In this document: positions 19,149 through 49,717 of the stretch, one piece after another
Numbering within the stretch: position 1 is the stretch's first letter
Layout of the letters: every line of letters starts with the position of its first letter
From: Candidatus Eiseniibacteriota bacterium
Lineage (GTDB): Bacteria; Eisenbacteria; RBG-16-71-46
Assembly: GCA_031370785.1 (NCBI GenBank)
Contig: JANMQY010000004.1
Location: forward strand, 1-59,086
Direction: 5' to 3'
Length of the DNA stretch: 59,086 nucleotides
Position numbers and translations under genes: made by a program
The notes under the pieces: model-generated
The model's input: the letters and a program-made list of their open reading frames with translations, nothing else
Databases searched by the model: none
Told to the model about the DNA's origin: nothing

Positions 19149-19164
19149 TGGCACACGGGTTGCC
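19149..19164 (+). promoter_or_regulatory. Sigma-54 (-24/-12) promoter
   Basis: TGGCACACGGGTTGCC matches TGGCAC-N5-TTGC exactly. It is intergenic and next to a sigma-54 activator operon. Confidence 0.8.
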
Positions 19165-37374: not shown

Positions 37375-38292
37375 CTAGAATTGGGCGGCGAGCGAGAACC
37401 GGTGGGTATCTCCGAGATCGCTCTTGAACGGGACGAAGGCGTAGTCGAGGTGCAGGCTCTGCACCGCCCAGCCCACGCCGAAGCTCAATGCCGACTCGGT
37501 GTCGCCCGCGGTCATTCCGGCGCGCACCGCAGCGCCCGAGGGATGCGCCAGCTCCGCTCCGAGCATCGCGACCGGCGCCTGACCCGTGCTGAAGCGCGAC
37601 TCGAGCGCACCACGCAGATCGAAGCCTCCGCCAACTCCGAATCCATACGATCCGCCGGCCTGAATGGCCGAGGGCAGACGAACCGGCGTTCCCTGCGCGC
37701 CGTCGATCGTGTAGTGCGCGGCCGGGCCGAGGTTGTGCGCGCTGAGGCTCAGGCGCAGCCCCGGTAGCATCGCGGGATCCCACGCGGTGCCGAGGCCGAA
37801 CGCCATGGTCGTGGCGGCCTGATCGGCGATGCGCTCGCGCACCAGTTGCGTGGTGGCGCCGAGCGTCACTCCGGGCGAGAGCTTGCGACCGTATCCGAGC
37901 GAGATCTCCAGATCGTGCGAGCCAAACGTGCCGATCAGATTTCCGAGCGCATCGCGCTCCTCGATCGGTTCCGAGTAGAGGGCGCGCAGCGAAGCGGCGA
38001 TGCCGCCTCCGAACAGACGTCCGCCGATCGCGAACTGGTCGTGACGGATTTTCTCGAGGTATTCGTAATGCGAACCGGAGATCTGGATGCCCTTGACCCG
38101 CTCGAGCGCCGCCGGATTCCAGAACACCGCCTCGACGCCATCGGCGAGCGAAGCGTAGGCCCCGCCCAGCGCCGAAGCACGGGCGCCGGCCGGCACCTTG
38201 AGAAAGGCGAACCCGGCGGGGTCGGCCGATGCGGCGGTGGCGAAGGCCGCGCACAGAAAGAGAGCGGCGGCGGCGCGAAGCGCGAGACGCAT
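37375..38292 (-). CDS. PorV/PorQ-family outer-membrane beta-barrel
   Basis: Signal peptide, FLKVPAGARASALGGAY, VFWNPAAL, LDYAFVP...LGDTHRFSL and C-terminal Phe. Confidence 0.85.
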   Translation of the reverse strand: MRLALRAAAALFLCAAFATAASADPAGFAFLKVPAGARASALGGAYASLADGVEAVFWNPAALERVKGIQISGSHYEYLEKIRHDQFAIGGRLFGGGIAASLRALYSEPIEERDALGNLIGTFGSHDLEISLGYGRKLSPGVTLGATTQLVRERIADQAATTMAFGLGTAWDPAMLPGLRLSLSAHNLGPAAHYTIDGAQGTPVRLPSAIQAGGSYGFGVGGGFDLRGALESRFSTGQAPVAMLGAELAHPSGAAVRAGMTAGDTESALSFGVGWAVQSLHLDYAFVPFKSDLGDTHRFSLAAQF

Positions 38293-38399
38293 GAAAGGCT
38301 CCGTGGGTCCTTAGAATGCGGAGGGGCCGGAAGTCCCGGCCCCGTCCGAACGGCGCGCACTGCGCGCGAATTGTAACCCAGTACTACCCGCGACGCCTG

Positions 38400-39911
38400 C
38401 TAGGGTTCGCCCCGACTGCGGCCATGCCCCCCGCCGCGCTGCGCATCGGGACGCGCGGAGGAATCGTGACGCTCGCGCTGCTGCGGCGGGTCGTTGCGCT
38501 GCGGTCGCTCTTCGCGGGGCGCGCGCTCCTGCCGCGGCTGGCGCTCCTCACGGGGTGGGCTCGCGGGTGCCGGGCGCTCTTCCCGGGGTCGCTCGACCCG
38601 TGGACTCTCCTCGCGCGGCGGATTCGCCGGTGCCGGGCGTTCGCGTCGCTCGATGCGCGGTGACTCTTCGCGCGGCGGGGCCTCGGGTGCAGGGCGCTCG
38701 TAGCGCCGCTCGATGCGCGGTGCATCTCCACCGCTGCCTTCCTCGCGCGGGCGCTCCGCCGGCATGGGACGCGCCACGGGCCGACGCTCATCGCCAACGC
38801 GGCGTGGGCGATCCCCGTCCGGCGGCGCCTGACGCACCGGCTCGCGGAACACGCCCGGTCGCTGCGCACCGACTCTGCCCGGCGCCGGATCGCGCGGGGT
38901 TTCGCGAGTGCCGCGGCCGACCGCGATTCCGCCCGGAATGTTCCGCCACTTCGTATTGTTGGTGACGAGGAATCCCGGCGGCGGCGATGCGGTGCCTCCG
39001 CGCCAGTTCGCGTACTTGCTCGGAGGGACGTAGCTGCGAGGCGGAGGCGTCCGGTATCGGGTGAGCGGGCCGCCCCAGATCTGGCACCAGCGATTCCAGC
39101 CATCCCACGACGAGAGCCACGGTCCGTCGTAGCGCCAGCGCGGCGGGCAGTCGTTGCGCACCACGTAAACGTAGTAGGGCACAAAGCCGTTCCAGCAGGT
39201 CGGCCCCCAGCCCCACGACCAGTTCACCCGGAAGTCCACCACGCTGCAGTGCGTGTAGTAGGGATCGAATCCATCCCACCACGCCCAGCGGTTCGGACGG
39301 TGGCAGTCGTAGCAGATGTAGCGCGGATAGCGCACCTTCTCGTGCACGTAGTACGCGGTGTAGGCGGTGGCGAATTCATCGGCCGAGCCCGGATCGCGTA
39401 GCACGTCTCGGCGAATGCGCTCCATCGCGACGAACGGGTCGCCGACGATGCGCCCGTCTTCGGTCACGCCGTCCTGATCATCGGGCTGGTTCACGTAGCC
39501 GACTTCGTCGGCCTGCGCGTTGTACGGGCGAAGGTACCAGGGCAGGTGGTCGAACGGCTGGTGCGAGGCGATCGCCACGACGTAGCCCTCGCCGGTGGAC
39601 TTCTGCACCACCAGCTCGAGGTCCGCATCGTCGGCGGGAATGTGATAGGTGCGCCGGGCCTCGACGAGACCGTTGCTCCCTTCGTACGGGAACAGGACCC
39701 GGACGTAGCCTTCCGCGTCGATTTCGTAGGCAAGCAGGTAGGAGTCTTCAGTGGTGCGGACGCGCAGCTGCATGACGTCGCCCGGCTCGTAGATCGCTTC
39801 ATTGCCGCGGTCGGTCCACAACTCGACCCCGAAGCCGCGAGCGGAGGCGGTCGTGGGCACGATCGCCAACGCTCCCATCAGCAGGCCGATCATCCACGTT
39901 GCTCGCTTCAT
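38400..39911 (-). CDS. DUF4384-domain exported protein with Trp/Tyr/Cys-rich middle and Pro/Arg/Glu repeat tail
   Basis: VELWTDRG...YEPGD...DSYL..Y.IDAEG.V.VLFP, then repeated ERPAP..PPREESPR. GGAG RBS. Confidence 0.82.
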   Translation of the reverse strand: MKRATWMIGLLMGALAIVPTTASARGFGVELWTDRGNEAIYEPGDVMQLRVRTTEDSYLLAYEIDAEGYVRVLFPYEGSNGLVEARRTYHIPADDADLELVVQKSTGEGYVVAIASHQPFDHLPWYLRPYNAQADEVGYVNQPDDQDGVTEDGRIVGDPFVAMERIRRDVLRDPGSADEFATAYTAYYVHEKVRYPRYICYDCHRPNRWAWWDGFDPYYTHCSVVDFRVNWSWGWGPTCWNGFVPYYVYVVRNDCPPRWRYDGPWLSSWDGWNRWCQIWGGPLTRYRTPPPRSYVPPSKYANWRGGTASPPPGFLVTNNTKWRNIPGGIAVGRGTRETPRDPAPGRVGAQRPGVFREPVRQAPPDGDRPRRVGDERRPVARPMPAERPREEGSGGDAPRIERRYERPAPEAPPREESPRIERRERPAPANPPREESPRVERPREERPAPASPPREERQPRQERAPREERPQRNDPPQQRERHDSSARPDAQRGGGHGRSRGEP

Positions 39912-40033
39912 GGCCAGTTCTCCTCCCGGCGACCGCCGGAGCTACTGACGCACACCCCTGGGAGCGCCCCCATGGTACACCCGGAGCGCACCTTTCGGGT
40001 TGACTACGCCCCATTTCGCGCTCTATTCCCCGA

Positions 40034-40059
40034 GACGGTTCAGGCGCGGTTCGGTTTCA
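40034..40059 (-). promoter_or_regulatory. ECF-sigma-type promoter upstream of the DUF4384 gene
   Basis: Minus strand reads TGAAAC-N16-CGTC. Confidence 0.6.
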
Positions 40060-40080
40060 GGCTCAATGCACGACCACGGT

Positions 40081-40908
40081 TCAGCGACTGGCCAGCGCGA
40101 TCGCCCGGCGCGCCCGGGGCGCGCCCTCGTCGCGCACCTTCTTCTGGCGCAGCTCAGGGTTGGCGGGGTCGGCCTGATAGGCCCAGTCGAAGGTCACCTG
40201 GGTCGTGCTCAGGGCCGTGGCCCGGAACTTTGCGTAGTGGTTGTCGAAGGTCCAGACGACGTAGCAGTGCCCGGGGACCAACTCCACCATGCCGCTCGGC
40301 GACCAGCCGGCGCTCGGGGCGACGTCCACTGCGTCCAGCGAGGTGGCATACCCGGCGTCCTGGATATCGGTGTCGGTGAAGGGGCAGATCATCGACGGGA
40401 TGCCGCTCGAAGTGGAGAAGTACACGTCGGTGGCCGGATCGTCAGCCGCCCGGACGGAGTAGGCCGAGAAGTCGTAGCCGGCGGTGGCGGGATCCGTCGC
40501 AGCATTGCTCAGCACGCGCCCGAATCCCTCGGGGCGCGGAGTGTCGTAGATATAGATGTCGTCGTAGCCCAGGGCGCTTTCGTTTCCCGCGCGGTCGACC
40601 GCGGCCACCGCGAAATACCGGGTCACGCCGTTGGCGAGCCCGGTCACGACGAACGCCGTCCCCGAGGTGAAGCCGATCGGATCGTACGGGCAGCTCGAGC
40701 CGCCAGCGCACGCCGACTCGTAGATCCGGTAGCCGGCCAGATCGCCTTCGGTGTTCGCAAGCCAGCGCAGGGTGACGCGATTGTCGCCGGTCACGCTGTA
40801 GAACCCGCGCACCGCGGCCGGAGGATGCAGATCGCGCGGAGAGGTCTGGTCGTCGCAACCCGCAACCAGACCGAGAACCGCGAGCAGGATGAGCCAGAGC
40901 CTCAACAT
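40081..40908 (-). CDS. Lipoprotein with fibronectin type III-like domain
   Basis: Lipobox LVAG-C, then VTLRW..NTEGDLAGYRIY...GLANGVTRYFAVAAVDRAGNES. GGAGG RBS. Confidence 0.85.
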   Translation of the reverse strand: MLRLWLILLAVLGLVAGCDDQTSPRDLHPPAAVRGFYSVTGDNRVTLRWLANTEGDLAGYRIYESACAGGSSCPYDPIGFTSGTAFVVTGLANGVTRYFAVAAVDRAGNESALGYDDIYIYDTPRPEGFGRVLSNAATDPATAGYDFSAYSVRAADDPATDVYFSTSSGIPSMICPFTDTDIQDAGYATSLDAVDVAPSAGWSPSGMVELVPGHCYVVWTFDNHYAKFRATALSTTQVTFDWAYQADPANPELRQKKVRDEGAPRARRAIALASR

Positions 40909-40960
40909 GGGTTCCTCCGTTGCCTGGTGGATTGCGAAGCGCTTGCCACCCACCTCAGAG

Positions 40961-40976
40961 GGCAACCCATGTGCCA
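40961..40976 (-). promoter_or_regulatory. Sigma-54 promoter of the lipoprotein gene
   Basis: Minus strand reads TGGCACATGGGTTGCC, about 50 bp upstream of the ATG. Confidence 0.8.
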
Positions 40977-41043: not shown

Positions 41044-41083
41044 AAGAAGAAGCCGCCCCCGGTGCTAGGAACCGAAGGCGGCT
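41044..41083 (-). terminator. Intrinsic terminator closing the structured RNA region
   Basis: Minus strand reads AGCCGCCUUCGGU-loop-ACCGGGGGCGGCU-UCUUCUU. The U-G pairs form only on the minus strand. Confidence 0.7.
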
Positions 41084-41461
41084 CTGGTGTGCGCAGCAGT
41101 CGCAGGTGTGCGAGCGCGCTACACCGGTGAGTGAATCGGGACATCGGGTCGAGCTGCACGTGACAACAGCCGAGACATCCCCCAGTGTTGGCCTATGTCA
41201 CGATCGAACCGATGTCCCAAACTACGAAAAAAAACCCGCCGATGGTGGGGCCGACCTTGGTCGGCTGGTTGCGTCCTGCTTCGGCCACTCCATCACCGGG
41301 ATCGAAGTGCACGTTCCAAGCTAGCCGGTCGTAAAGGGCGGTGCGTTGTCATATGACTGGGGCTCGTACCCTCGACCGGACCCCTCACTGCACCGGCTAG
41401 CCCAGATTGTGGATCGACAACTTGCGCCGCCGATCTTTTTGGAGGTCCCCCCCCTCCGCGG
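41044..41461 (-). ncRNA. Candidate ~420-nt multi-hairpin non-coding RNA, not matching any family I recognise
   Basis: Seven consecutive stem-loops lie between a sigma-54 promoter and a terminator. G-U pairs consistently favour the minus strand, there is a GCAA tetraloop, and no ORF has a credible RBS. Confidence 0.65.
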
Positions 41462-41471
41462 AAGATGTAAG

Positions 41472-41487
41472 AGCACCCCGCGTGCCA
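41472..41487 (-). promoter_or_regulatory. Sigma-54 promoter driving the structured RNA
   Basis: Minus strand reads TGGCACGCGGGGTGCT with correct GG/GC spacing. Predicted +1 (~41461) is at the foot of the first hairpin. Confidence 0.72.
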
Positions 41488-41806
41488 TACGCGCGACAGT
41501 CGCCGAGAAAGTTCAGACGGGACTGTGCCGCAAGGTGTTGGGCCACTGAGCCGCTTCGCGCTTCGTCGAGAGTTCCGGGCGCACGGGCACGCAGAACCGA
41601 AACAAAACCGCGACGATTCGGGGCTCACTCGCTAAGCCGCTGAATGGCAACGCCCTGTCTATAAAGGTTCTTGCCACTCGTTTCATAAAGAGAAGCATCA
41701 GACCGGCGCGGCGCACGAGGCGACAGACGCTGCGCGGCACAAATGCGCGAGCGGCGGATGCGCGATGCGCGCCCGCCGCTCGAAAGAAGCTCAGGGATGG
41801 ATTTCG

Positions 41807-44800
41807 CTAGACGTTTCGCCGGCGCTCGAGGCCGAGGGTGCGGATCTTGGCGAGGAGCGTTGGATAGCTGAGCCCGAGCTCGCGCGCCACGCGCGCCTTG
41901 TTCCAGCGATTGGTCTCGAGCGCATCGGCGATCATTCGCTTCTCGAGCTGCGAGACATTGCTGCGCAGGGTCTTCCCCGTCGGGCGTTCGACCGCGGTGC
42001 GCTCGGCGGCGCCGGGACACATGTCCGGCGGAAGCAGCGAGGAGACGAGCGTATCGCCTTCGTCGGCGAGCACGACCATGCGCTTGACGGTCTTCTCGAG
42101 CTCGCGCACGTTGCCGCGCCACTCGTGCTCGAGAAAGATGCGCATGACATCGGGCGCGAAGCCCTTCAGCGTCTTCTCCATCTGCCGCGAGTAGAGCGCG
42201 AGGAAGTGCTGGGCCAGGACCGGAATGTCTTCCCGGCGTTCGCGCAGCGCGGGCACGCGCACCGTGATGTCGTTGAGCCGGTAGTACAGATCCTCGAGGA
42301 ACCGGCCGGTCTTGATACGCTCGCGCAGGTCGCAGCCGGTCGCGCAGATCACCCGCGCGTTCACCTTCTTGTTGCGCGTGGCCCCGACCGGGCGGATCTC
42401 GCCCTGGTCGAGCACGTGAAGCAGCTTGGCCTGCACCGACTCCGGCACCTTCTCGATCTCGTCGAGGAAGATCGTGCCGCCCTCGGCCTCTTCGAACAGT
42501 CCGGACTTGTCGCGTGCCGCGCCGGTGAAGGCGCCCTGCACATAGCCGAACAGCTCGCTCTCGAGCAGCTGCTCGGGGAGCGCTGCGCAGTTCACCTGCA
42601 CGAACGGCCCGTCGCGCCGGTTCGAGATCTCGTGCACGACCTGGGCGAGCAGACCCTTGCCGGTTCCGGTCTCTCCCATGAACAGCACGGTCGCGGTGCT
42701 GTCTCCCACCTTGTTGAGCAGGCTGAGGATGTTCGCCATCTCGCGCGCCTGGCTCACGATCCGATCCGCGCCCGGACTCGGCTTGAGCTTGTCGCGCAGT
42801 TCGCGGTTCTCGGCCAGCAGCAGCGAGCGCTGCGCTTCGACGATTGCAACGCCGGTGCTGTTGGCCAGCACCGCGAGCAGGTTCAGCTCGCGCTGGCGGA
42901 AGGCGCCAAGCAGGTTGTCGTTGAGCCGGTCCACGTACACCAGGCCGACCGACTGCGAGGGGAAGTTGAGCGGCACGCACACCAGCGAGCCGACGCCTTC
43001 GAGGGCGTCCACCAGCGCGGCGCCGAAGCGCGGATCGGCAGCGACCCTGCTCGAGAACAGTGGACCGTTCTCGGCGAGACGGTTTCCCGCGACGCCTTCG
43101 ATCACGCGCAGCACGCGGCGCGCGCGGTCACGGCCGAGGCCATGCTGCGCGACAACATCGAGGCGACCGCCGCCGCTGCTGAACGCGACGAAGCCGCGAT
43201 CCCCGCCGGCGTGCTCGACCGCCAGCCGCACCGCCTGCGCGAGAAGCCCGTCCATGTCGGAGGTCTCGCGGAACAGGCGGTTGGCATCTTCGAGCGCGCG
43301 GAACTCGTTACAGGTCGACAGCGAGACCGCGACGTACTGGCGCTCGAGCTCGCGACGCAGCTCGGCCGCGCGCTCCTCCGCCTCGGGCTGGCCACCCGCC
43401 GTCGGGCCGCCGTCGGCCAGCCACTGTTCGCTCTGCTCGAGAAGCGAGAGGGCCTGGTCGTAGTGCTCGCGTTCGGCCTCGAGTCTCGCAAGCGAGAGGA
43501 GCGCCTCGGCGGCAAGGGGGACCAGCCCGAGCTGACGGAACAGGGTCGTGGCACGACGGCTCGCGTCGATGACCGGCTCCAGCGGAACACGCAGCCGCGC
43601 GCTGGTCGGCAAAAGCAGCAGGTACTCGGCCCACGCCGCGAGCGTGACCGCGTGCTCGTAGACCTCGCCCAGCTGATCGAAGCACAGCGACGCATCGCGC
43701 AGCTTGAGCTCGCACGCGGCGGCATTGCCGCGCACCGCATCGAGGCGGGCGAGCGAGCGCTGGGCGAGCGCCTGCTCGATTCGGTCCCCGAGGCGCTCGA
43801 ACATCGCGGCGCCGTGGAGCAGATGCGTCTGTGCTTCATCGACGCGGCCGGCGTGCAGGAGCGCCAGTCCGTATCGGGTCTCGAGCTCGGCGGTCAGATC
43901 GCCCTGCGGTGTGATCGCGCGCGCGTCGGCCAGCGCCGGCTCGAGCAGCAACAGCGCGGCCGCGACATCTCCGCGGTCCAGCTCGAGCTCACCCAGGAAT
44001 TCGCGGGCCAGCACGTTCTCGCGCTGCACGCCCACCTGCTGGGCGAGCTGGAGCGCGCGCTGGAAGTGCGAATGCGCCTGCTCGAACTGGCGGCGGCGGC
44101 GGCACAGCAGGCCGAGCGCCATGAGCGCCATCGACTCGCCCTGCAGGTGGCCGGTCTCGCGCGAGATCCGCAGCGACTGGCGGAAATTCTCCTCCGCAAG
44201 ATCCCACTGTCCGAGTCGGTAGCGGATCAGGCCCAGGTTCTGGCAGTGCCCGCGCATGCGCGCGTAGAGGCCGGCGCGCTCGTCGAGGCGCAGCGCCTGC
44301 TCGAGGAACCGCGTCGCTTCGCGCCATTCGCGCAGGTTCTTGTAGACCAGCCCGAGGTTGTTGAGCGCGGTCACCAGCCCGTCGATGTCGTCGATGCGGC
44401 GGAACGTGGCGGCCGCGCTCTGCAGCCACTCGATCGCCTCGGTCGGCCGCCCGAGCCGATTCACGCAGATTCCGAGGGTCATGCTCACCTGGCCTACCGT
44501 GCGATGGTCGTCGGTGTCGCGCAACACCGCGTAGGCGTACTGCGCGTAGCGGCGGCCGGAACGATAGGAGGCGAGTTCGGTGAGCAGGTGTGCCGCGCGG
44601 GCAGCGATTCCGGCGTTGAGCCGCGTGTCGTGGAGGATGCGGGCGTCGCGCCGGGCTTCGCGCGTCAGGCGCAGCGCAGTCTCGAACTCGCCGCGCCGCA
44701 TCTCTGCCTCGGCCAGCCGCGTGAGGATTCGCACGCGCTCGGAGGGCATGTTGGCGCCAACCAGTTCGAGGGCGGCGGTGTACTCCTCTACCGCGCCCGC

Positions 44801-44908
44801 GAAATTGTCAGCGGCCAGATGCAGATCTCCGATCGACTCGCGCTGCCCGACACCATCTCGAAGCGTGCCGGGGGCGTGAGCCAGCTCGGGGGGGATCGCT
44901 CGCTGCAC
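41807..44908 (-). CDS. TPR-GAF-AAA+-HTH sigma-54 enhancer-binding protein with no receiver domain
   Basis: About 550 aa of TPR-like helices ([17 protein letters not shown]), a GAF domain (SLVCVPL...VGLVYVD), [42 protein letters not shown]. Confidence 0.92.
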
Positions 44909-45005
44909 TTTTCGAACCCTCGAATGACGGACACCCGGTGAAAGCCACGGCGGTTCGTTCCGCGACTTCGTTTGCGACCGGTGAGGTGAACCCGGACTAC
45001 AGCCC

Positions 45006-45326
45006 TTACTTGATCACCCTCAGGTAAAGCGCCGCCCAGATCCTACTGATCCACTGAACCCGCGCGAACCCACGCAAAGTCACGCCGTACGAACTCTCTT
45101 CACGCGGTTCGGCGACGACCCGAACCACGGGAATCGTAGGAGTCTTGCTGGGGCTGTCGGGTTCCGATGATGTCTGACCCACGCCGGGCTTTTGAATCGT
45201 GCCCACGGGTGCGCCGCCACCAACGTCGTCACCATAAGACGACGAGGCACGCGCCCCCTGCGCGGTGATCGAGATCACCGAAAGGAGGACCAGTGTGACC
45301 AGGAGTCTGTTGCAATTTTTCCGCAT
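45006..45326 (-). CDS. Small secreted protein / peptide precursor (106 aa)
   Basis: GGAGGGAG precedes ATG 45326. Signal peptide MRKNCNRLLVTLVLLSVISITAQGARA, a low-complexity G/S/P core, and a cationic Trp-rich C-terminus. Confidence 0.7.
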   Translation of the reverse strand: MRKNCNRLLVTLVLLSVISITAQGARASSSYGDDVGGGAPVGTIQKPGVGQTSSEPDSPSKTPTIPVVRVVAEPREESSYGVTLRGFARVQWISRIWAALYLRVIK

Positions 45327-45479
45327 GCGCTGCCTGCTCCCTCCACGACTGGCGGTAAAAGAAAACCCATGACCCTGTCGGGCCGGAGGAGTCCTGACAG
45401 GCTCTTTGCGAAAAGTGAGGGGACCTTTACCAGCGCCGGGAACAGTATCCGCCCTGCCCCGAACAACCGTCAAAGACTT

Positions 45480-48190: not shown

Positions 48191-49713
48191 ATGACCCTGC
48201 GCGCGCGACTCATCCTGGCATTGCTCGCGATGGCATTGCTGCCCACCGCGGCGTTCACCATGTTCACCCTCGATCAGCTCGGGCAGTCCACCCAGCGCTG
48301 GATCCGTCCGGGCGTGGATCGCGCGCTCGAGTCCGCGGTCGAGACCACCCGGGTCACGCTGGTGAAGCTCGAGGCGCTGTGCCGGAGCCAGGCCGCGCAC
48401 TGGGCGAAGGAATGGCGCGGCGCAAGCCCAGGGAACGAAGGAACGCCCGCGATGCGCGACGCGCTGCGCGACGGCGGGCTCGACTACCTGCAGATCTATC
48501 GCCGGGACGGCCCGCGCTGGGTCGCCGAGGCGAACGTCGCGCCCACCAACGTGATCGTAGCCACGTGGCCCGAGCTGAGCGCGGCCATTGACAGCGCGCT
48601 GGCCGCGGATCACGTGGTCCGCTCGCCGCACGGCGCGCTCGCCGGCGTCGCGCGGCTCCCCGATGGTCGTGCCGCGGTCGCCGGCGTGTGGGTGCCGCCC
48701 GGTTTCTTCGCCGACATCGAGCGTGTCGCGCGCGGCCGGGACTTCTATCGCCGCCTGGGGGTGGTCGTCGACGTCCAGCGCGGATACGTATGGCTGCTGG
48801 TGATCGGTCTGGGCCTCGCTCTGAGCGTGCTCGCGATCGGGATCGCCACCCTGCTGGCGCGCGGCATGTCGCGACCGATCCGCGATCTTTCCTCTGCGCT
48901 CGAGCGCGTGGCCGCAGGGGATCTGAGCGCGCGCATCGCACCGGCCGGCGCCCGCGAATTCCGGCGCCTCGGCGGCTCGTTCAACACCATGACCGGGCGG
49001 CTCGAAACCGCGCAGGCCGCGCTGCGCGAGGCGGCGCGTGAGGCCGCGTGGCGCGAGGTGGCGCGCCGGCTCGCCCACGAGTTCAAGAATATCCTCACGC
49101 CGATGGCGCTCTCGCTGCACCGCCTCGAGCGTCGCGCCGAGGCGGTCGCCGAGCCCGAGCGCGAACCGGTGCGCGAGAGCCTGCAGGCGCTCGAACGCGG
49201 GGTCGAGCAGATGACCCGCCTGAGCGAGCAGTTCTCGCAGTACGCGCGCCTTCCCGATCCGCGCTTCGAGGTGCTGGACTTGAGCGAAGTGGCGAGTGGC
49301 GCCGCCTCGATGCACGACCCCGCTCCACAGCGGATCGAGCTCCACGATGGCGGGCGCATCGCGGTCCGCGGTGATACTCTGCTGCTCTCTCGCGCCATCC
49401 ACAATCTGATCATCAACGCATGCGAGGCGAGCCCGCCCGACACCGTGGTCGAGGTTCGCACCCGGGCCGAGGGCCCGCTCGCGATCGTGGAGGTGCTGGA
49501 CCGCGGTGCCGGCGTGCCCGAAGCGCTGCGCGCCCGGCTGTTCGAACCGTACGTGAGCACCAAGAAGCGTGGCAGCGGCCTGGGCCTGGCCCTGGTGCGT
49601 GACATCGCGCTGCAGCATGCGGGCAGCGTTTCACTGGAAGACCGTAGCGGCGGGGGCACGTGCGCGCGCCTCGCGCTGCCTCTTTTCGAGGAAACCCGGG
49701 AGACCGAGAAGGC

Positions 49714-49717
<4 letters not shown>
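48191..49717 (+). CDS. HAMP sensor histidine kinase (NtrY-like)
   Basis: Two TMs, a HAMP domain, AAWREVARRLAHEFKNILTP, NLIINA, DRGAG, STKKRGSGLGL. Confidence 0.92.

Follow-up and report, generated by a model that had tools for sequence, protein, structure and literature searches.

A lineage-wide cassette of small exported protein, TPR-sigma-54 activator and structured RNA in Candidatus Eisenbacteria, and its paralogous partner

In the LuxO-Qrr circuit of Vibrio a sigma-54 activator drives small RNAs (sRNAs) that feed back on the activator mRNA (PMC3262071), and a second RNA, the QrrX sponge, base-pairs with the Qrr sRNAs and inactivates them (PMC9732341). In Myxococcus xanthus the gene for the sRNA Pxr is located directly behind that of the NtrC-like activator PxrR; its sigma-54 promoter lies about 260 bp downstream, its first stem-loop is functional and the host has no Hfq (PMC5684412). 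The RRNPP systems (Rap-Phr, NprR-NprX, PlcR-PapR and AimR-AimP) are composed of a small Sec-exported protein, carrying a clade-specific short motif, encoded beside a cytoplasmic tetratricopeptide repeat (TPR) protein. One of these receptors, AimR, drives an RNA, AimX. Long regulatory RNAs placed downstream of their activators are also known from CbrB-CrcZ and CsrB/RsmZ; CrcZ is sigma-54 dependent, and the CrcZ and CsrB/RsmZ sponges carry many repeats of protein-binding motifs. Here we describe a locus in a stretch of 59,086 nucleotides of Candidatus Eisenbacteria DNA (hereafter the window, to which plain positions refer), composed of a gene for a small exported protein, a gene for a TPR-containing sigma-54 activator, a sigma-54 promoter and a structured RNA designated RNA1.

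Conservation of the cassette

The small open reading frame (ORF; 45006..45326), the activator gene (41807..44908), a sigma-54 -24/-12 site (41473..41487) and the conserved core of RNA1 (41137..41461) follow one another in this order on the minus strand of the window, as the original prediction, made from the letters of the sequence, had stated. The activator, described there as having neither a receiver nor an adjacent kinase, contains no Response_reg domain, and the nearest kinase gene (48191-49717) is placed on the opposite strand, together with its own response regulator.

An orthologue of the activator was identified in 39 of 41 related genomes (a tally including the unpublished G026), at identities down to 41%. 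The prediction had proposed a search of homologues for the small ORF upstream and the sigma-54 site and RNA downstream, and both sides proved to be conserved. The small ORF precedes the activator in 99 of 100 loci (96 by script and three more by eye, the last one having an early stop); these loci include repeated genomes and comprise 79 distinct full-length pairs. A sigma-54 site and then the RNA hairpin follow the activator gene in all 38 loci with downstream DNA. An independent scan of 185,579 genomes with the promoter and hairpin alone gave at least 119 matches; among the 80 listed, the activator lies directly upstream in 78, and the other two are cut by contig ends. Nearly all named records among these 80 loci belong to Candidatus Eisenbacteria, and a few carry other submitter labels. 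We conclude that the cassette is real, lineage-wide and undescribed in the searchable literature; its linkage, promoter, structure and complementarities are evident from the comparison of relatives. Both rpoN and csrA are present in the genome. Hfq was not found in this 100% complete genome, in which positive controls were detected, and a search for FliW, also with positive controls, was negative.

RNA1, its partner RNA and the complementary leaders

With 15 one-mismatch matches in the window against 10.8 expected, the sigma-54 site of RNA1 alone is not above chance; its spacing, however, is fixed, as it precedes the first RNA hairpin by 13-15 nt in 37 of 38 orthologous loci scored by script and in the 38th, judged by eye. 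An imperfect palindrome, TRTMAA-N5-TTKAYA (41659..41676, minus strand), located about 220 nt before the RNA hairpin, is the likely enhancer to which the activator would bind. Its half-site was detected in 70 of 95 loci (13 in shuffles), often at the same distance. The sequence TGGCAAG at 41676 was considered as a third promoter and rejected, since it has no GC at -12 and is part of the palindrome.

The core of RNA1 (about 325 nt) is built of a 5′ hairpin, a variable hairpin, domain B, a variable domain C and domain D. The 5′ hairpin, GGAGG-G(3-6)A-CCUCC (41441..41457), is invariant in 38 of 38 loci and marks the predicted +1 of RNA1. It is the sole element common to all clades and is kept in distant short RNAs, while the body of the RNA varies among clades in make-up and in length (about 130 to 650 nt). 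Domain B (41315..41406) and domain D (41138..41218), a long hairpin with the loop GGGGGAUG behind which most relatives carry a U-rich tail, covary well above both controls. In domain B, 11 of 29 pairs are changed on both sides and 93% of cells are paired; in domain D the former value is 18 of 23, with none of 500 shuffles as high. The numerous G-U/G-C exchanges in these domains favour the minus strand as the RNA strand. On folding, the 419-nt stretch gave z = -5.75 and a 338-nt core z = -4.32. The all-hairpin transcript of about 420 nt proposed in the original prediction holds as a structured RNA, but not in its end at 41044: the conserved RNA stops at about 41137, after domain D, and the last 90 nt of the RNA proposed there contain an element, described below with the downstream lipoprotein gene, that is located past a terminator hairpin in some relatives. 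A terminator-like hairpin with U8 is also located inside the variable domain (41255-41227, minus strand) and was not seen in most relatives; it may yield a short form of RNA1 that lacks domain D.

A second cassette was distinguished at G000:C103:7334-10935 (loci L043 and L176). It encodes a 109-aa exported protein with GEPA and GDPD and a TPR-AAA+-helix-turn-helix (HTH) activator of about 800 aa without a GAF domain. Its sigma-54 site (G000:C103:10419-10433) is followed by RNA2 (about 490 nt, approximately G000:C103:10445-10935; z -7.9), in which a 20-nt motif is kept in 43 of 44 copies. Rfam gave nothing at gathering score for RNA1 or RNA2, with four chance-level matches at E up to 10; ARAGORN returned none, and blastn found no further RNA1 copy in the genome.

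The tip of domain B (41373-41359) is an exact 15-nt complement of an RNA2 loop (G000:C103:10630-10644), and the 12-nt core of this complementarity has two occurrences in the 3.44-Mb genome, one in each RNA. At least 12 Watson-Crick (WC) pairs are possible in 29 of 40 RNA1-RNA2 pairs from 39 genomes, compared with 0.08% of shuffles. In G008 and G042 the insertion of one base into RNA1 has its counterpart in RNA2, and in G013 it is tolerated through G-U pairing. Both motifs are predicted to form short hairpins with complementary six-base loops, whose opening costs 1.4 and 2.4 kcal/mol, and the net duplex would amount to about -18 kcal/mol after both are opened. Conserved extended complementarity between two regulatory RNAs, as expected of a sponge pair, was therefore found at the level of sequence.

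Further observations concern RNA2. Genome G012 carries two copies of cassette 2 (L183 and L212), and both of their RNAs are complementary to its single RNA1. A CACCUCC loop in RNA2 (G000:C103:10552-10561; 19 of 28 copies), similar to an anti-Shine-Dalgarno (SD) sequence, is a 7-nt complement of the SD of the cassette-1 small ORF and could be a further cross-link between the cassettes. The word CCCGGU(C) recurs in domain C of RNA1 (about one copy on average) and in RNA2 (about two), and is a possible shared protein-binding site.

The operon of the small protein and activator has a sigma-70-type promoter (45444..45473, minus strand; 9 of 12 consensus positions), whose TTGAC..GATACT layout recurs in most family-level relatives. 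The 5′ leader of about 111 nt (45327..45437), with its start placed from the -10 element, has a predicted structure that covers its own ribosome-binding site (RBS); this closed fold is the minimum-free-energy structure in some, not all, of 38 folded leaders. About 100 nt before the start of the small ORF the leader contains the motif AGGUCCCCUC (45417..45426), which is the reverse complement of the RNA1 5′ hairpin, is partly complementary to the SD in cis, and is present in 28 of 41 leaders. Between the 5′ end of the cassette-1 RNA and the leader, at least 7 WC pairs are available in 43 of 45 close loci. The match is less regular in distant clades (14 of 32 loci), although in L127 leader and RNA 5′ end are perfectly complementary over 15 nt.

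The second cassette provides the decisive control for this match, since its RNA has a different 5′ start, GGAUACGGG, and its own leader holds the matching CCCGUAUCC. For each of the two RNAs, the own leader pairs over a longer stretch than that of the other cassette in 22 of 24 two-cassette genomes. Cognate RNAs and leaders of cassette 2 share 9.15 WC pairs, against 7.46 for the leaders of other genomes. Of 41 cassette-2 loci, 34 retain both sides of the seed (two lost both and five lost one), and the 306 seed cells of these 34 comprise 287 consensus, 7 compensatory, 5 G-U and 7 mismatch cells. RBS access did not change clearly when the leader motif was blocked or bound, and a genome-wide scan for the motif, based on a crude gene caller, gave no clear target set.

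Another pairing is located at the activator start, where a hairpin precedes the SD region (44913..44957) and its loop (44957-44952) is complementary to bases just 3′ of the SD (44918-44913). At least six WC pairs are available in 27 of 38 loci (11% in shuffles), and the pairing is compensated, with both sides changed, in L006, L007 and L130. It likely represents a pseudoknot, predicted to gate translation of the activator.

A relative at about 93% identity was found in three metatranscriptome runs of one study, as contigs only, which have no bearing on transcription, ends or levels. Two runs (X1 and X2) gave flat, DNA-like contigs of 19-27 kb. The third (X3) gave one contig over 41138-41439 (the RNA core), one over 44386-45419 (leader, small ORF and activator start) and other short pieces.

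The small exported protein, the activator and neighbouring genes

The small protein (106 aa) consists of a Sec signal peptide, with a basic N-terminus followed by a hydrophobic core and an Ala-x-Ala site, a Gly/Pro/Ser-rich linker, an S-E-P-D motif (residues 54-57) and a C-terminal amphipathic Trp-rich helix. It matched no Pfam or NCBIfam family, and the ESM Atlas gave only Eisenbacteria clusters, of low recognition value. Sec-signal features recur among 106 such proteins (basic N-terminus and hydrophobic core; AxA in 77 and a lipobox in none). The ORF encodes 82-126 aa in 79 relatives, lies 20-145 nt from the activator gene, and has pN/pS below 1 in 15 of 15 close pairs (0.35-0.88). Conservation is restricted to the signal peptide, a G-[ED]-x-D core (G/S-[ED]-x-D) and the amphipathic, non-transmembrane C-terminal helix.

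In 39 of 41 genomes a profile of the protein matched at just one or two places, and the second of these is the gene before the paralogous TPR-AAA+-HTH activator. An exported small ORF is also present in 29 of 30 cassette-2 loci and in all 36 further TPR-activator loci with upstream DNA, six more having been set aside for want of a TPR N-terminus or of upstream DNA. The motif differs by receptor clade (GEPD, GDPD, GDSD, GDGDG or PDET), is doubled in several precursors, and is followed by a median of 50 residues (21-75) to the C-terminus. Loci L234-L240 form a further TPR-activator clade, in which the motif reads [GST]SPDETL or GTPDETL and which is mostly without a nearby sigma-54 RNA by the pattern used. 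An arrangement of reversed order was observed in L045 (G000:C64, after 23500): a GAF-sigma-54 activator, then a sigma-54-like site, then a signal-peptide ORF of about 100 aa with a C-terminal helix.

The activator (1033 aa) contains about a dozen TPR helical pairs, a GAF domain (551-689), a Sigma54_activat domain (717-883) with an intact GAFTGA motif, and a Fis-type HTH (HTH_8). Residues R151, R170, R171, N183, K190, N224 and W235 are conserved in the TPR region; the first six are kept in 88-97% of 137 activators and, judged from the TPR register, would line the TPR groove. This set of basic and Asn residues appears suited to an acidic peptide. Among solved folds, LGN/Pins peptide complexes come closest to the TPRs, while RapF and RapI rank 48-49 (RapI, at rank 49, with a TM of 0.83 on the target). 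A likeness of the small-protein motif to an acidic motif of LGN ligands was not confirmed. By sequence the activator shows no clear homology to RRNPP receptors: no RRNPP chain was present among its 35 phmmer matches or the best 60 of its 166 profile matches. Oligopeptide-binding proteins were found in 25 of 25 genomes.

Downstream of RNA1 and outside the conserved RNA (41044..41125, minus strand) lie the element GGTGT-N-CACAC (41125-41105) and a terminator hairpin (41084-41044). At the DNA level the element probably serves to enhance the promoter that follows, an exact sigma-54 consensus match (40962..40976, minus strand) belonging to a lipoprotein gene (40908-40081). It co-occurs with this site in 34 of 35 element loci, and 21 loci have the site without a match to the regular expression. 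The operon behind the site (37375-40976, minus strand) encodes the lipoprotein, which belongs to no Pfam family, a DUF4384 protein with a Pro/Arg-rich tail and a PorV/PorQ-family protein. The sigma-54 consensus is matched exactly at a third place in the window, 19149-19163 (plus strand). On another contig, G000:C102:23033-29700, csrA was read from the sequence near genes for a sigma-54 response regulator and FlhG- and sigma-28-like proteins. In the available part of PMC13443453, CsrA of Eisenbacteria is mentioned only as often predicted to be inactive on a Bacillus target.

Proposed mechanism, alternatives and relation to known systems

We propose a model in which two activators, each controlled by an exported protein, produce RNAs that exert feedback on their own operons while also binding each other, and we assign this model a probability of roughly 0.5. 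The sigma-70 promoter would give a single mRNA for the small protein and activator with both RBSs folded shut, and ribosomes finishing the small ORF could open the loop-SD pairing at the activator RBS. The small protein would be exported by Sec and cut, and a [GS]-[ED]-P-D fragment might re-enter through the oligopeptide permease, bind the basic, Asn-lined TPR groove and switch the AAA+ domain; for this route, as for peptide sensing by the activator in general, we regard the odds as even. The GAF domain would serve as a second input. Binding of the activator to the palindrome (41676-41659) and firing of the sigma-54 promoter, which would yield RNA1, are well supported and very probable. Pairing of the RNA1 5′ hairpin with the leader of its own operon, without Hfq, is a supported and probable step that would close a feedback loop, whose sign leans slightly to activation since the RNA1 target is an anti-SD. 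In the family of the window, the tip of domain B likely pairs with RNA2 from the paralogous cassette, and mutual titration of the two RNAs would let the cell weigh two signals against each other. Comparison of relatives gives the RNA pairings good support; we infer transcription, peptide processing, re-import and binding, the feedback sign and the outcome of RNA-RNA pairing.

The original prediction regarded the locus as a possible joining of peptide input of the RRNPP kind with sRNA output from an adjacent sigma-54 activator. The output half is strongly supported by the fixed promoter spacing, the conserved upstream palindrome and the covarying helices. The input half gains indirect support, because the small protein precedes every TPR-sigma-54 activator examined, its profile is almost unmatched elsewhere, and its acidic motif is set against a conserved Arg/Lys/Asn set in the TPRs; homology to RRNPP receptors was not apparent from the sequence matches. 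That prediction included neither the second cassette nor the feedback of the RNA on the leader, nor the complementarity of the two RNAs. A more far-reaching version is speculative: undescribed peptide cell-to-cell signalling in two-membrane bacteria, where two exported propeptides each act on a TPR sigma-54 activator of their own and the RNAs amplify their own cassette and annihilate each other by loop-loop pairing, might constitute an Hfq-independent bistable or ratio-sensing switch between two social signals.

Several observations weigh against the proposed model. The sizes of the precursor (106 aa, narrowly outside) and the receptor (1033 aa, about 800 aa in the paralogue) exceed those given for RRNPP systems in the available part of PMC10075063, namely 10-100 aa for propeptides and 250-500 aa for receptors. 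The co-variation of peptide and TPR pocket that the original prediction had suggested looking for did not appear: no TPR position among 137 activators tracks E versus D of the motif independently of clade, and the top position, 231, tracks one clade only. The conserved C-terminal helix of the small protein has no role if the protein is a pheromone precursor. The RNA1-RNA2 match is absent, with both sides lost, in five of five sister-family genomes tested and comprises 7-11 pairs in six others; the compensated insertion is probably one event, and permutation p-values are overstated because kin are not independent. The energy of the RNA1 hairpin with its own leader is matched by 54 of 747 control regions, cognate and non-cognate leaders of cassette 1 are nearly equal (8.07 vs 8.01 WC pairs), and pairing in cis with the SD accounts for part of the leader motif. 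The RBS opening energy on binding was lowered in 14 and raised in 5 of 28 leaders, against 13 and 6 of 25 with the wrong RNA, so that no effect was shown.

The same components may be read in other ways. The small protein could report on export, with unexported precursor (during a Sec jam or envelope stress) binding the TPRs in the cytoplasm of the same cell, or with its translation and export controlling activator translation through the loop-SD pairing; the RNA layer would be unchanged. SecM and VemP control translation of their downstream genes in the latter manner. This explanation accounts for a signal peptide combined with a conserved amphipathic C-terminal helix, for the strict position of the small ORF 20-145 nt before the activator, and for the conserved covarying pairing at the activator start, and it needs no passage over two membranes. 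It is nevertheless doubtful, as the distance of the motif from the C-terminus places it mostly outside the ribosome tunnel, motifs that differ by clade or are doubled would suit a specific ligand, and the downstream gene encodes a regulator, not an export component.

The RNAs, in turn, might be CsrB/RsmZ- or CrcZ-like protein sponges that titrate CsrA through G-rich loops, with the complementarities secondary. The presence of csrA in 38 of 41 genomes and the failure to find FliW in this one would suit such a role, as would GGGGGA loops in both RNAs and a domain-D loop ending in an invariant GGAUG closed by ACA/UGU, similar to the CsrA consensus. However, GGA is not enriched (2.7 vs 2.2 and 2.2 vs 2.1 per 100 nt), hairpin and loop are kept in G038 and G040 (94% and 86% complete), in which csrA was not found, one family has no GGAUG loop, and the cassette-specific leader matches are left unexplained; we consider titration of CsrA improbable. 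Little probability is likewise given to the complementary stretches being inverted DNA operators near both promoters, for example for the activator HTH, in place of RNA-RNA contacts. Both seeds do lie just downstream of promoters, where repressors bind, and their concerted changes could follow a shift in protein specificity, but the tip of domain B is located 90 nt inside a covarying RNA domain, changes tolerated as G-U and the compensated insertion point to RNA, a separate palindrome already fits the enhancer role, and the 15-nt match in the L127 leader argues in the same direction. Least probable by far is that RNA1 is merely a long 5′ leader or riboswitch of the lipoprotein operon: a co-oriented lipoprotein gene follows in most loci, yet a separate sigma-54 site serves that gene, U-rich terminators lie behind domain D, and in several loci the downstream gene differs while the RNA stays.

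Our preferred model, with two exported-protein-controlled activators and mutually binding RNAs, can be set against the described systems. As in the Qrr and Pxr circuits, the RNA has an adjacent sigma-54 activator and a -24/-12 site at fixed spacing, in a genome with rpoN; receiver phosphorylation has no counterpart in an activator that lacks Response_reg, and RNA1 has no sequence match to Qrr or any other Rfam family. In Vibrio, phosphorylation switches LuxO, Hfq takes part in the action of Qrr and QrrX, and qrrX is under a LysR regulator (PMC3262071; PMC9732341); here there is no receiver, Hfq was not found in the genome, the RNAs are multi-domain molecules of 300-500 nt, and the pairing RNA comes from a paralogous cassette. 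PxrR is a response regulator with the kinase PxrK, and Pxr has three stem-loops and no exported partner (PMC5684412). With the RRNPP systems the locus shares the Sec-signal features of the small protein and its adjacency to the receptor gene (99/100 cassette-1, 29/30 cassette-2 and 36/36 further loci). RRNPP hosts are Firmicutes and their elements, whereas this lineage has outer-membrane genes (Omp85, PorV-like) and its TPRs form the N-terminus of a sigma-54 AAA+ activator. Compared with CsrB/RsmZ, the host CsrA is present in 38 of 41 genomes, the many GGA motifs are lacking, and Hfq was not found.

No described system joining RRNPP-type input, LuxO-Qrr feedback and QrrX sponging was found in the searchable literature; supplementary tables of predicted RNA motifs could hold these RNAs. 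If the model is true, an exported protein fragment read by TPRs is a new input of sigma-54 activators, intracellular peptide sensing extends past Gram-positive bacteria, and two signals are integrated by direct pairing of sensor-driven RNAs without Hfq. If the small protein is not the ligand, the system is a variant of sigma-54 sRNA circuits. Handles for tests in an uncultured phylum are offered by the four-residue motif, six pocket residues, the enhancer and three RNA pairings, for which compensatory variants occur in nature. Because the size, receiver and Hfq comparisons fail, the cassette is a member of none of these systems, and each of its single steps resembles a known logic, i.e. RRNPP input, LuxO-Qrr feedback and QrrX sponging. 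By analogy with what the available literature describes, it would work like LuxO-Qrr with QrrX, is laid out like pxrR-pxr, and would receive an RRNPP-like input.

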